Assembly (NCBI RefSeq): GCF_003334785.1
Contig: NZ_QOWV01000013.1
Reading direction: 5' to 3' (one strand)
Length of the DNA stretch: 64,000 nt
DNA from: Escherichia coli
GTDB taxonomy: Bacteria > Pseudomonadota > Gammaproteobacteria > Enterobacterales > Enterobacteriaceae
The first letter of the stretch is position 1. Every line of letters starts with the position of its first letter. A model generated the notes under the pieces. That model was not told where the DNA came from. It worked only from the letters and a program-made list of their open reading frames with translations, and did no database searches. Positions 11,466 through 62,746 of the stretch are shown here, piece by piece. The position numbers and the translations under genes were made by a program.

Positions 11466-11505
11466 TGTATTTTTATTCATAAATACTGCATGAATATTGA
11501 TACTA
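11466..11505. promoter_or_regulatory. argE/argCBH divergent control region with paired ArgR operator (ARG boxes)
   Basis: tgtatttttattcataaatactgcatgaatattgatac: two adjacent AT-rich TNTGAAT..ATTCA-like half-site palindromes between the divergent argE and argC starts. Confidence 0.6.
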
Positions 11506-11528: not shown

Positions 11529-12680
11529 ATGAAAAACAAATTACCGCCATTTATCGAGATTTACCGCGCTCTGATTGCCACACCTTCAATAAGCGCCACG
11601 GAAGAGGCACTCGATCAAAGCAATGCAGATTTAATCACTCTGCTGGCGGACTGGTTTAAAGATTTGGGCTTCAATGTGGAAGTGCAGCCTGTTCCAGGAA
11701 CTCGCAACAAATTCAATATGCTGGCAAGTATCGGACAGGGGGCTGGCGGCTTGTTGCTGGCGGGGCATACCGATACGGTGCCATTTGATGACGGTCGCTG
11801 GACGCGCGATCCGTTTACACTGACGGAGCATGACGGCAAGCTTTACGGCTTAGGCACCGCCGACATGAAAGGCTTTTTTGCGTTTATCCTTGATGCGCTA
11901 CGCGATGTCGACGTCACGAAACTGAAAAAACCGCTCTACATTCTGGCGACTGCTGATGAAGAAACCAGTATGGCCGGAGCGCGTTATTTTGCCGAAACTA
12001 CCGCCCTGCGCCCGGATTGCGCCATCATTGGCGAACCGACGTCACTACAACCGGTACGCGCACATAAAGGTCATATCTCTAACGCCATCCGTATTCAGGG
12101 CCAGTCGGGGCACTCCAGCGATCCAGCACGCGGAGTTAACGCTATCGAACTAATGCACGACGCCATCGGGCATATTTTGCAATTGCGCGATAACCTGAAA
12201 GAACGTTATCACTACGAAGCGTTTACCGTGCCATACCCTACGCTCAACCTCGGGCATATTCACGGTGGCGACGCTTCTAACCGTATTTGCGCTTGCTGTG
12301 AGTTGCATATGGATATTCGTCCGCTGCCTGGCATGACACTCAATGAACTTAATGGTTTGCTCAACGATGCATTGGCTCCGGTGAGCGAACGCTGGCCGGG
12401 TCGTCTGACGGTCGACGAGCTGCATCCGCCGATCCCTGGCTATGAATGCCCACCGAATCATCAACTGGTTGAAGTGGTTGAGAAATTGCTCGGAGCAAAA
12501 ACCGAAGTGGTGAACTACTGTACCGAAGCGCCGTTTATTCAAACGTTATGCCCGACGCTGGTGTTGGGGCCTGGCTCAATTAATCAGGCTCATCAACCTG
12601 ATGAATATCTGGAAACACGGTTTATCAAGCCCACCCGCGAACTGATAACCCAGGTAATTCACCATTTTTGCTGGCATTAA
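11529..12680 (+). CDS. argE: Acetylornithine deacetylase (383 aa)
   Basis: ORF contains [48 protein letters not shown]; M20 peptidase family. Confidence 0.93.
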
Positions 12681-12683
12681 AAC

Positions 12684-12907
12684 GTAGGCCGGATAAGGCG
12701 CTCGCGCCGCATCCGGCGCTGTTGCCAAACTCCAGTGCCGCAATAATGTCGGATGCGATGCTTGCGCATCTTATCCGACCTACAGTGACTCAAACGATGC
12801 CCAACCGTAGGCCGGATAAGGCGCTCGCGCCGCATCCGGCACTGTTGCCAAACTCCAGTGCCGCAATAATGTCGGATGCGATACTTGCGCATCTTATCCG
12901 ACCTACA
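12684..12907. repeat. Two tandem REP/BIME units (about 101 bp each, period 123 bp) in the argE-ppc spacer
   Basis: gtaggccggataaggcgctcgcgccgcatccggc...atcttatccgacctaca occurs twice almost identically (12684..12784 and 12807..12907). Confidence 0.85.
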
Positions 12908-13154
12908 CCTTTGGTGTTACTTGGGGCGATTTTTTAACATTTCCATAAGTTACGCTTATTTAAAGCGTCGTGAATTTAATGACGTAAATTCCTGCTATTT
13001 ATTCGTTTGCTGAAGCGATTTCGCAGCATTTGACGTCACCGCTTTTACGTGGCTTTATAAAAGACGACGAAAAGCAAAGCCCGAGCATATTCGCGCCAAT
13101 GCGACGTGAAGGATACAGGGCTATCAAACGATAAGATGGGGTGTCTGGGGTAAT

Positions 13155-15806
13155 ATGAACGAACAATATTCCGCATTGCGTAGTAATGTCAGTATGCTCG
13201 GCAAAGTGCTGGGAGAAACCATCAAGGATGCGTTGGGAGAACACATTCTTGAACGCGTAGAAACTATCCGTAAGTTGTCGAAATCTTCACGCGCTGGCAA
13301 TGATGCTAACCGCCAGGAGTTGCTCACCACCTTACAAAATTTGTCGAACGACGAGCTGCTGCCCGTTGCGCGTGCGTTTAGTCAGTTCCTGAACCTGGCC
13401 AACACCGCCGAGCAATACCACAGCATTTCGCCGAAAGGCGAAGCTGCCAGCAACCCGGAAGTGATCGCCCGCACCCTGCGTAAACTGAAAAACCAGCCGG
13501 AACTGAGCGAAGACACCATCAAAAAAGCAGTGGAATCGCTGTCGCTGGAACTGGTCCTCACGGCTCACCCAACCGAAATTACCCGTCGTACACTGATCCA
13601 CAAAATGGTGGAAGTGAACGCCTGTTTAAAACAGCTCGATAACAAAGATATCGCTGACTACGAACACAACCAGCTGATGCGTCGCCTGCGCCAGTTGATC
13701 GCCCAGTCATGGCATACCGATGAAATCCGTAAGCTGCGTCCAAGCCCGGTAGATGAAGCCAAATGGGGCTTTGCCGTAGTGGAAAACAGCCTGTGGCAAG
13801 GCGTACCAAATTACCTGCGCGAACTGAACGAACAACTGGAAGAGAACCTCGGCTACAAACTGCCCGTCGAATTTGTTCCGGTCCGTTTTACTTCGTGGAT
13901 GGGCGGCGACCGCGACGGCAACCCGAACGTCACTGCCGATATCACCCGCCACGTCCTGCTACTCAGCCGCTGGAAAGCCACCGATTTGTTCCTGAAAGAT
14001 ATTCAGGTGCTGGTTTCTGAACTGTCGATGGTTGAAGCGACCCCTGAACTGCTGGCGCTGGTTGGCGAAGAAGGTGCCGCAGAACCGTATCGCTATCTGA
14101 TGAAAAACCTGCGTTCTCGCCTGATGGCGACACAGGCATGGCTGGAAGCGCGCCTGAAAGGCGAAGAACTGCCAAAACCAGAAGGCCTGCTGACACAAAA
14201 CGAAGAACTGTGGGAACCGCTCTACGCTTGCTACCAGTCACTTCAGGCGTGTGGCATGGGTATTATCGCCAACGGCGATCTGCTCGACACCCTGCGCCGC
14301 GTGAAATGTTTCGGCGTACCGCTGGTCCGTATTGATATCCGTCAGGAGAGCACGCGTCATACCGAAGCGCTGGGCGAGCTGACCCGCTACCTCGGTATCG
14401 GCGACTACGAAAGCTGGTCAGAGGCCGACAAACAAGCGTTCCTGATCCGCGAACTGAACTCCAAACGTCCGCTTCTGCCGCGCAACTGGCAACCAAGCGC
14501 CGAAACGCGCGAAGTGCTCGATACCTGCCAGGTGATTGCCGAAGCACCGCAAGGCTCCATTGCCGCCTACGTGATCTCGATGGCGAAAACGCCGTCCGAC
14601 GTACTGGCTGTCCACCTGCTGCTGAAAGAAGCGGGTATCGGGTTTGCGATGCCGGTTGCTCCGCTGTTTGAAACCCTCGATGATCTGAACAACGCCAACG
14701 ATGTCATGACCCAGCTGCTCAATATTGACTGGTATCGTGGCCTGATTCAGGGCAAACAGATGGTGATGATTGGCTATTCCGACTCAGCAAAAGATGCGGG
14801 AGTGATGGCAGCTTCCTGGGCGCAATATCAGGCACAGGATGCATTAATCAAAACCTGCGAAAAAGCGGGTATTGAGCTGACGTTGTTCCACGGTCGCGGC
14901 GGTTCCATTGGTCGCGGCGGCGCACCTGCTCATGCGGCGCTGCTGTCACAACCGCCAGGAAGCCTGAAAGGCGGCCTGCGCGTAACCGAACAGGGCGAGA
15001 TGATCCGCTTTAAATATGGTCTGCCAGAAATCACCGTCAGCAGCCTGTCGCTTTATACCGGGGCGATTCTGGAAGCCAACCTGCTGCCACCGCCGGAGCC
15101 GAAAGAGAGCTGGCGTCGCATTATGGATGAACTGTCAGTCATCTCCTGCGATGTCTACCGCGGCTACGTACGTGAAAACAAAGATTTTGTGCCTTACTTC
15201 CGCTCCGCTACGCCGGAACAAGAACTGGGCAAACTGCCGTTGGGTTCACGTCCGGCGAAACGTCGCCCAACCGGCGGCGTCGAGTCACTACGCGCCATTC
15301 CGTGGATCTTCGCCTGGACGCAAAACCGTCTGATGCTCCCCGCCTGGCTGGGTGCAGGTACGGCGCTGCAAAAAGTGGTCGAAGACGGCAAACAGAGCGA
15401 GCTGGAGGCTATGTGCCGCGATTGGCCATTCTTCTCGACGCGTCTCGGCATGCTGGAGATGGTCTTCGCCAAAGCAGACCTGTGGCTGGCGGAATACTAT
15501 GACCAACGCCTGGTAGACAAAGCACTGTGGCCGTTAGGTAAAGAGTTACGCAACCTGCAAGAAGAAGACATCAAAGTGGTGCTGGCGATTGCCAACGATT
15601 CCCATCTGATGGCCGATCTGCCGTGGATTGCAGAGTCTATTCAGCTACGGAATATTTACACCGACCCGCTGAACGTATTGCAGGCCGAGTTGCTGCACCG
15701 CTCCCGCCAGGCAGAAAAAGAAGGCCAGGAACCGGATCCTCGCGTCGAACAAGCGTTAATGGTCACTATTGCCGGGATTGCGGCAGGTATGCGTAATACC
15801 GGCTAA
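13155..15806 (+). CDS. ppc: Phosphoenolpyruvate carboxylase (883 aa)
   Basis: [29 protein letters not shown].. ..GMRNTG, 883 aa. Confidence 0.96.
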
Positions 15807-28365: not shown

Positions 28366-28465
28366 TGCCTGATGCGCTACGCTTATCAGGCCTACGCAAT
28401 CTCTGCAATATATTGAATTTGCGTGCTTTTGTAGGCCGGATAAGGCGTTCACTCCGCATCCGGCA
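28366..28465. repeat. RIP/BIME-1-type element (REP - IHF-like core - REP) in the gldA-yijF spacer
   Basis: gcctgatgcgctacgcttatcaggcctac..attgaatttgc..gtaggccggataaggcgttcactccgcatccggca. Confidence 0.8.
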
Positions 28466-38204: not shown

Positions 38205-38302
38205 GCCTGATGCGCTACGCTTATCAGGCCTACGTCATATTGCAATTTATTGAATTTGCACGAACTTGTAGGCCGGATAAGGCGTTCACGCCGCATCCGG
38301 CA
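38205..38302. repeat. RIP/BIME-1-type element in the metJ-yiiX spacer
   Basis: gcctgatgcgctacgcttatcaggcctacg..tgcaatttattgaatttgca..gtaggccggataaggcgttcacgccgcatccggca; near-identical to the copy at 28366..28465. Confidence 0.8.
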
Positions 38303-57584: not shown

Positions 57585-57692
57585 GCCGGATGCGGCGCGA
57601 ACGCCTTATCCGGCCTACAAAAGTTTGCAAATTCAATAAATTGCAGAATTCATGTAGGCCTGATAAGCGAAGCGCATCAGGCATTTTTGCTT
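57585..57692. repeat. RIP/BIME-1-type element in the sbp-pfkA spacer (inverted relative to the copies at 28366 and 38205)
   Basis: tgccggatgcggcgcgaacgccttatccggcctaca..tgcaaattcaataaattgca..gtaggcctgataagcgaagcgcatcaggca. Confidence 0.8.
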
Positions 57693-62667: not shown

Positions 62668-62746
62668 CAGGATAAGGCGTTTACGCCGCATCCGGCATTT
62701 GAGCAGGATGCCTGATGCGACGCTGATAGCGTCTTATCAGGCCTAC
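62668..62746. repeat. REP pair in the cpxA-yiiM spacer
   Basis: ggcaggataaggcgtttacgccgcatccggca ... gcctgatgcgacgctgatagcgtcttatcaggcctac. Confidence 0.8.

Follow-up and report, generated by a model that had tools for sequence, protein, structure and literature searches.

What is the palindromic DNA that lies between argE and ppc in this Escherichia coli genome, how did its unit come to be present twice, and does the number of units matter to the genes on either side? REP and BIME arrays, the grammar of y and z2 elements from which they are assembled, and the variation of their copy number between strains have been known since the 1990s. The array examined here, within a 64-kb stretch of E. 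coli DNA (hereafter the window, meaning that stretch at its full length), represents a familiar class of element, at a locus that has been noted before. The REPs of the K-12 ppc-argE intergenic region have appeared in a published figure, together with antisense starts that would read into them (PMC7967276). What we add is an allele census of this one locus in 5,426 genomes; the observation that two-unit alleles originated repeatedly and that laboratory K-12 derivatives differ in unit number; and the finding that the site past the argE stop codon has been filled repeatedly by differing repeat families across the Enterobacteriaceae.

A two-unit BIME-2-type array in the argE 3' untranslated region

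Tandem Repeats Finder placed a tandem array at 12683-12907 (period 123, 1.8 copies, 98% matches, 0 indels), and a repeat search returned two 105-nt copies (12680-12784 and 12803-12907) that are 97% identical at an offset of 123 nt. The initial annotation had described a tandem duplication of a composite REP/BIME unit at this place, and that description holds, with a 123-nt period and 97-98% identity. Only three positions differ from copy to copy, namely 12682/12805 (a/c), 12718/12841 (g/a) and 12760/12883 (g/a), the last of which is the difference between gatgcttgcgc and gatacttgcgc. The two copies align with each other and both carry REP hairpins, as homologous units should. Between the copies the 30-nt inner linker varies only at its first base and, like the 22-nt core of the spacer, is confined within the 64-kb window to the argE-ppc array. 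Because this non-REP linker matches in both copies and is absent elsewhere in the window, the repeat is attributable neither to chance nor to two separate REP insertions. No other long-period tandem array was detected by Tandem Repeats Finder in the whole 64-kb window, and the six further REP sites found there are lone REPs or single pairs (Table 1), in agreement with the remark that no other BIME of the window is iterated.

The array had been placed between argE and ppc, and its position after the end of argE at 12680 and before the start of ppc at 13155 agrees with this. The two genes were also said to be convergent, which is mistaken: both are encoded on the + strand, with argE upstream. 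RefSeq annotation agrees in seven other E. coli genomes, and among loci fetched from other Enterobacteriaceae (120, of which 106 had upstream sequence long enough to test) the C-terminus of ArgE was encoded upstream of ppc and on the same strand in 106 of 106. The array thus lies in the argE 3' untranslated region, upstream of the ppc promoter region. The longest argE open reading frame begins at 11490, and the start given in Table 1 follows from the RefSeq gene length of 1152 nt. Over its first 25 kb the window is nearly identical to K-12-like strains. A terminator scan of 12500-13300 found no intrinsic terminator on either strand, the T6 site of the right flank failing the scan, and no sigma-70-like promoter was found on the + strand of the same interval. 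The hairpin and T6 run of the right flank occupy the position at which many other Enterobacteriaceae carry a hairpin and T-run after argE.

Table 1. Coordinates of the argE-ppc array, its flanks and the other REP sites of the window
Feature	Position	Strand	Basis
argE (acetylornithine deacetylase) CDS, stop codon TAA at 12678-12680	11529..12680	+	ORF list, RefSeq annotation
Unit 1, y-type REP, GTAG-first, GTAGGCCGGATAAGGCGCTCGCGCCGCATCCGGC	12684..12717	+	Sequence, hairpin fold
Unit 1, inner linker GCTGTTGCCAAACTCCAGTGCCGCAATAAT, 30 nt, without IHF-like motif	12718..12747	+	Sequence, IHF motif scan
Unit 1, inverted z2-type REP, CTAC end, GTCGGATGCGATGCTTGCGCATCTTATCCGACCTAC	12748..12783	+	Sequence compared with REP325, fold
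Inter-unit spacer AGTGACTCAAACGATGCCCAACC	12784..12806	+	Sequence, allele alignment, unit dissection
Unit 2, y-type REP	12807..12840	+	Sequence, repeat comparison
Unit 2, inner linker; first base A versus G in unit 1, otherwise the same	12841..12870	+	Sequence
Unit 2, inverted z2-variant REP; upper stem GATACTT versus GATGCTT	12871..12906	+	Sequence
Right flank, weak hairpin and T6 run (12930-12935)	12907..12937	+	Fold of about -9 to -11 kcal/mol
Conserved region ahead of ppc (promoter and 5' leader), with hardly any variation among the aligned E. coli alleles	12938..13154	+	Allele alignment
ppc (phosphoenolpyruvate carboxylase) CDS, 883 aa, same strand as argE	13155..15806	+	ORF list, RefSeq
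Lone REPs	~4214, ~17742		REP census of window
Single BIME-1 pairs	28367-28465, 38205-38302, 57585-57690		REP census of window
Single y-z2 pair	62670-62746		REP census of window

Each 100-nt unit consists of a y-type REP, a 30-nt linker and an inverted z2-type REP, and a 23-nt spacer separates the units. The GTAG of unit 1 begins 3 nt past the argE stop codon and the stem of its hairpin 7 nt past it. The four REPs are imperfect palindromes within the 20-40 nt by which REPs are defined, each with a GTAG or inverted CTAC foot, and they are extragenic as REPs are, lying between the argE stop and the ppc start without a RefSeq CDS. An E. coli genome holds a median of 5-6 matches to the unit. At 33 of its 34 positions the y REP equals the first y REP of REP325 in MG1655, the exception being the second base (T versus A). 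The z2 REP has the 36-nt length of a z2 and differs at six positions from the canonical REP325 z2 of MG1655, GCCTGATGCGACGCTTGCGCGTCTTATCAGGCCTAC; in the predicted hairpin these six differences form exactly three compensatory pairs (C-G to T-A, T-A to G-C and C-G to T-A).

Folded as RNA, the y REP alone is predicted to reach -21.1 kcal/mol (z-score -2.05) and the z2 REP alone -19.4 kcal/mol (z-score -5.1); as DNA the corresponding values are -12.2 and -10.3 kcal/mol. A whole unit is predicted to form one long hairpin, of -58.2 kcal/mol in one unit and -53.7 kcal/mol in the other as RNA (z-scores -6.9 and -8.1) and of -28.2 kcal/mol as DNA for unit 1, and the whole array reaches -123.6 kcal/mol as RNA (z-score -9.4). 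Covariation along the long y-z2 hairpin was negligible (term -0.24), with changes on both sides in only 2 pairs among 12 unit variants, so that the variants give no evidence of selection on the long-hairpin fold. Two open reading frames run inside the palindromes, at 12668-12937 (+) and 12677-12892 (-), and are unannotated in every RefSeq record examined.

BIME-2 elements consist of y and z2 REPs in multiple tandem copies, and the tandem copy number per locus differs among strains (PMC3333891). We show that the argE-ppc repeat is a two-unit BIME-2-type array: it pairs a y REP with an inverse z2-type REP, as in the Gilson/Bachellier scheme summarised in PMC3333891; its copies are nearly identical, conserved and arranged head-to-tail; their number varies between strains; and it has no L linker with an IHF site. 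It departs from BIME-2 in its 30-nt inner linker, where a short S linker (13 nt in REP325) would be usual, and in its z2 REP, which is the variant with three compensatory pair changes. Textbook BIME-2 also has flanking motifs of the s, l or r type. The array may count as an "atypical BIME" because of the 30-nt inner linker.

Its closest counterpart in our comparisons is REP325, between yjdM and yjdN, which has the same (GTAG-y)-linker-(z2-CTAC)-spacer grammar on the coding strand of the upstream gene, sits between co-directional genes and begins just past the upstream stop codon. The two arrays differ in period (100 nt in REP325, 123 nt here), in unit number (about six, as against two in the window and three in MG1655) and in the sequences of linker and spacer; moreover, REP325 has been characterised experimentally. 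The REPIN/RAYT system (PMC3333891, PMC3116915) offers a further likeness, in that the array has a GTAG-tagged REP with an inverted REP, and the CC|TAC at the end of each unit resembles the cleavage site mapped as "iREP II". At the z-type "iREP I" site, TGCC|TGAT is altered to TGTC|GGAT, and the essential C|T is lost. Amplification of the array is explained by homologous recombination as well as by mobilisation through TnpA(REP).

Unit number across Escherichia coli and its relatives

The initial annotation had suggested that copy number at such loci often varies between strains, and a comparison across E. coli confirmed it for this locus, with alleles ranging from 0.5 to 4 units in E. coli and reaching 5 in E. 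whittamii (Table 2). The census covered 5,426 complete E. coli genomes, and each query was designed to reach the 80% coverage threshold on the allele sought and on no other; the three- and four-unit alleles are given only as a sum, the search joining pieces in such a way that repeated parts of the query map to one genomic unit. Its counts describe a collection biased towards laboratory K-12 derivatives and clinical lineages, in which short-read collapse of repeats is possible in single assemblies. The spans seen in an independent systematic sample of 60 genomes, taken with a flank-only query, agree with the census counts: 22 of these genomes had one unit, 16 a half unit, 14 three units and 4 the replacement repeat, while two units, four units, the 18-nt-deletion variant and a divergent locus were met once each.

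Table 2. Alleles of the argE-ppc intergenic region and their counts in the census of 5,426 complete E. coli genomes
Allele	Example	Intergenic length	Genomes	Share
Four units	Strain 32F4	720 bp		
Three units (2.8 copies by Tandem Repeats Finder)	K-12 MG1655	597 bp		
Three units, 18-nt deletion inside first y REP	Strain EH10-18-47	579 bp		
Two units	The window	474 bp	~115, by subtraction	~2.1%
Exactly one unit	E. coli C, O157:H7, ATCC 8739	351 bp	2,269	41.8%
Half unit (z2 REP only; half-unit junction)	CFT073, ST131, M24	301 bp	1,530	28.2%
Different G+C-rich palindromic repeat replacing the BIME	STLIN_13	411 bp	285	5.3%
One or two units			2,384	
Remainder (three or four units and variants)			1,227, by subtraction	~22.6%

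The two-unit state of the window is uncommon, and short-read assembly can collapse a tandem repeat of 123 bp; the 25 kb around it are, besides, nearly identical to K-12, whose reference has three units. That the window represents a three-unit array lost in assembly is nevertheless very improbable, given the roughly 115 complete genomes with two units, which include natural isolates from many hosts, appear as single uninterrupted alignments and comprise at least two haplotypes. For at least 60 of them a single 427-bp alignment was seen directly, and 30 match the window exactly.

Two-unit alleles are best read through their arrangement of units. That of the window equals the MG1655 allele minus one unit, with unit 1 and spacer of MG1655 followed by a unit identical to its unit 3, and it is the expected product of a crossover anywhere within the ~95 nt common to units 2 and 3. 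A second two-unit haplotype, represented by strain LB858871, has another combination of the SNPs that mark the units. Because these two haplotypes are structurally different, two-unit alleles arose at least twice. The K-12 derivatives GM4792, MC1061 and OV2 have two units and MG1655 three, so that either the array changed on a laboratory time scale in these strains or their assemblies collapsed.

These alleles show in part that copy number changes by gain and loss of the whole 123-bp unit. Unequal homologous recombination or replication slippage between units would be the likely route, possibly assisted by TnpA(REP), the REP-associated transposase. The spacer is limited to alleles with at least two units, and since one-unit and half-unit alleles are without it, they cannot regrow by unequal crossover.

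Elsewhere in the genus, E. whittamii has 5 units, E. albertii 2 units and a z2 remnant, and Escherichia sp. E1V33 2 units. Because multi-unit arrays occur in these other species, the array, including its spacer, must be old within Escherichia. Comparison beyond the genus shows in part that it is an Escherichia feature, absent from most other Enterobacteriaceae: in 66 of the 106 loci outside Escherichia the intergenic region is no longer than 290 nt and has no insert, and 36 of those 66 carry a hairpin and T-run, most of them about 40 nt past the argE stop; in E. coli the equivalent position keeps no more than the weak hairpin and T6 run. The post-argE spot is taken by other REP types in Salmonella and in several Citrobacter species, and by a different repeat array in Pseudenterobacter.

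Candidate roles of the array

REP325 stabilises the upstream mRNA, attenuates transcription ahead of the downstream gene in a partly Rho-dependent way and gives rise to a ladder of hairpin-terminated RNAs, and tandem gene pairs with a REP show a genome-wide bias towards upstream expression; REP effects are also context-dependent, and the half-lives of REP-terminal mRNAs are not generally longer (bioRxiv 10.64898/2026.03.23.713779). By analogy with REP325, the most likely role of the argE-ppc array is protection of the argE 3' end from exonucleases, and it probably also curbs read-through from argE into ppc, a canonical terminator being absent. Upon transcription of argE, each unit would fold into very stable RNA hairpins; these would halt 3'-to-5' exonucleases, thereby stabilising the argE message, and in combination with the unstructured, C-rich linker and spacer they could bring about partial, Rho-assisted termination. 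Fewer transcripts begun at the arginine-regulated argE promoter would then run on into ppc, which would retain its own conserved promoter region, and a larger number of units would be expected to form a stronger barrier. As a second effect, the first hairpin, 3-7 nt past the stop codon, may slow translation termination and lower the yield of ArgE, and the y REPs are candidate gyrase sites at the DNA level. The initial annotation had named gyrase binding and a barrier role in transcription or mRNA stability, and both are plausible for this array, having been published for BIME-2 elements and for REP325 (PMC6379681; bioRxiv 10.64898/2026.03.23.713779).

Taken as a whole, the explanation that joins a BIME-2-type identity and the gain and loss of units to a role as stabiliser and attenuator is the one we favour, with moderate confidence. 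Against it, or at least against any strict need for the array, half-unit (28%) and replaced (5%) alleles are common and most Enterobacteriaceae are insert-free, so that no single copy number can be required, and covariation among the unit variants is negligible. If copy number does tune the expression of argE or ppc, the natural alleles of 0.5 to 5 units would already supply the means of testing the terminator-plus-stabiliser model of REP function.

It is possible, though less likely than not, that the array is instead essentially neutral or selfish DNA, which persists and is resized only through TnpA(REP) and recombination, any effect on transcripts being incidental. The common alleles span half to four units, with another repeat at the same spot in 5% of genomes, and the one-unit and half-unit alleles, unable to expand by unequal crossover, total 70%. 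The 66 short, insert-free loci among the 106 from other Enterobacteriaceae point the same way, as does the negligible covariation, and in other genera unrelated REPs or other repeats sit at this place, as would be expected of an insertion hot spot more than of a conserved function. However, the three fully compensatory z2 pairs imply that the hairpin itself is maintained, the array has been kept across Escherichia species, and REP325, a similar array, measurably affects its neighbours. Maintenance of the hairpin could, for its part, reflect recognition by the transposase instead of a function for the host.

The position of the first hairpin raises the thought that the stop-proximal REP acts mainly to lower ArgE synthesis, terminating ribosomes being stalled and trans-translation following. 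REPs no more than 15 nt from a stop codon are reported to cut protein yield (Liang et al. 2015, as summarised in PMC7967276), and the GTAG and the stem of unit 1, at 3 and 7 nt past the TAA, fall inside the limit given there; the distance from stop codon to REP hairpin is, moreover, constant in alleles of one, two, three and four units. In the half-unit allele (28% of genomes), by contrast, the remaining hairpin stands about 19 nt past the argE stop codon, so any such effect would be dispensable, and a role confined to the first hairpin leaves the iteration of the unit unexplained. We regard it as doubtful as the main role, and retain it as the secondary effect named above beside mRNA protection and attenuation.

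A role at the level of DNA, as a strong gyrase site or a topological insulator between the argE and ppc transcription units, seems unlikely. Gyrase cleavage sites are significantly enriched in BIME-2 elements, chiefly in their y REPs and regardless of transcription (PMC6379681), and the two y REPs of the array are predicted to be able to extrude as DNA hairpins. Cleavage was seen in only a subset of BIME-2 elements, however, with sucC-sucB and tldD-yhdP highlighted in that work, and the accessible portion of its supplements makes no mention of argE or ppc.

The idea of mRNA protection and attenuation can be carried further, to the speculative and rather improbable proposal that unit number after argE is a heritable, stepwise dial. 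More units would then give greater argE mRNA stability and more Rho-assisted insulation of ppc, the first hairpin would trim ArgE translation, and the alleles of the phylogroups (half a unit in CFT073 and ST131-type strains, one in O157:H7 and three in K-12) would be real regulatory variants, subject to one-way decay towards the one-unit and half-unit states.

Both units resemble naRNA4 (Rfam RF02564), a family derived from REP325, at 56.7 bits (12687-12780) and 53.3 bits (12810-12903), both on the + strand and with E-values of about 1e-8 to 1e-9. Other Rfam matches, to miRNA and snoRNA families, fell far under their thresholds and were set aside as chance matches to hairpins. The likeness to naRNA4 would invite the view that the array encodes HU-binding RNAs that condense the nucleoid, along the lines of the original proposal (PMC4550694), but both scores lie below the Rfam gathering threshold of 59.5 bits, and a 2026 preprint that shares an author with that proposal reports REP325/naRNA4 to be without measurable nucleoid compaction (bioRxiv 10.64898/2026.03.23.713779). 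This reading is largely contradicted, and we consider it highly improbable for the argE-ppc array.

Least probable of all is an IHF-binding BIME of the RIB/RIP kind, as the initial annotation had entertained in listing IHF among possible ligands: the IHF motif WATCAANNNNTTR is absent from the array even when one mismatch is allowed, and its REPs are y and z2, not y and z1. Such binding is a property of the L linker of BIME-1, which the array resembles in being an intergenic, inverted pair of REPs. BIME-1 elements are single-copy, pair y with z1 rather than z2 and have an L linker with ATTCAATAAATTG-type IHF motifs, none of which applies to the argE-ppc array, and BIME-1 identity was accordingly rejected on its z2-type second REP, its iterated unit and its want of an IHF motif. 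The three BIME-1 linkers of the window served as positive controls, and each of the three matches WATCAANNNNTTR with one mismatch.

Variation within the argE-ppc array

The z2 REPs of the array (12748-12783 and 12871-12906) differ at six positions from the canonical z2 sequence of REP325 (comparison locus L012), and these six differences form three fully compensatory base pairs, defining a z2 subfamily that has kept its hairpin rather than its sequence. The number of units also varies among K-12 derivatives, with two present in GM4792 (genome matches H114 and H193), MC1061 (H136 and H195) and OV2 (H137 and H199), whereas MG1655 carries three (L001/L002). The two-unit sequence of GM4792, MC1061 and OV2 is identical to that of the window, and reflects either the loss of a unit during laboratory descent or collapsed assemblies.

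A smaller change was seen in E. coli EH10-18-47 (L009), where the y REP of the first unit has an internal 18-nt deletion that converts GGCGCTCGCGCCGCATCCGGCGCTG to GGCGCTG and would destroy the hairpin proximal to the stop codon. The deleted stretch is bounded by the direct repeat GGCGCT, and the event looks like a slippage deletion.

Other repeats at the post-argE site

In 285 of 5,426 complete E. coli genomes (5.3%), the BIME is absent and its site holds another palindromic repeat, rich in G+C (…CCCCTCGCCCCTTCGGGGAGAGGGTTAGGGTGAGGGG…), that may resemble 'boxC'. This repeat is dispersed genome-wide, at a median of three places per genome, including one near trmJ, and the allele that carries it at argE-ppc retains a CTCAAATGATGCCCAAA segment homologous to the inter-unit spacer of the BIME. 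In Enterobacter sp. BIGb0383 (L018) the argE-ppc intergenic region extends to 1,313 bp and contains a low-G+C insertion of ~1 kb with an apparent ORF, while in Pseudenterobacter timonensis (L070) the corresponding region of 455 bp has a different tandem array at the same post-argE position, consisting of ~31-nt units (e.g., GGTTCCCTCTCCCGGAAGTTGGCGCCGAAC) with CCCTCTCCCC…GGGGAGAGGG palindromes on its flanks. Intergenic repeats seem to have landed repeatedly at the post-argE site.

Possible transcription signals flanking the array

Many insert-free Enterobacteriaceae (L013 and L087, among other comparison loci) possess a strong hairpin followed by a T-run ~40 nt 3' of the argE stop codon, an arrangement resembling an intrinsic terminator. 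All that remains in the E. coli sequence downstream of the BIME (window 12907-12937) is a weak hairpin plus a T6 run at 12930-12935, as if such a terminator had decayed. On the minus strand, two overlapping promoter-like matches (13192-13163; CTGACA, a spacing of 16 or 18 nt, and AATATT or TATTGT) face the array, antisense from the ppc start; antisense transcription starts have been reported in the K-12 ppc-argE intergenic region (PMC7967276, Fig. 5A).

REP and BIME elements elsewhere in the window

The three BIME-1 L linkers of the window were used as positive controls when the array was scanned for IHF sites; each contains the IHF-like motif ATTCAATA(A/T)ATTG, with one mismatch relative to WATCAANNNNTTR.

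Coordinates of the replacement-repeat allele and of further REP/BIME elements
Feature	Sequence	Position	Composition
Replacement-repeat allele	E. coli STLIN_13 (L005)	481-643	
BIME-1, single	Window	28367-28465	z1 REP, L linker, y REP
BIME-1, single	Window	38205-38302	z1 REP, L linker, y REP
BIME-1, single	Window	57585-57690	z1 REP, L linker, y REP
y-z2 pair, single	Window	62670-62746	Canonical BIME-2 unit in one copy, with a short linker of 13 nt
Lone REP	Window	about 4214	
Lone REP	Window	about 17742
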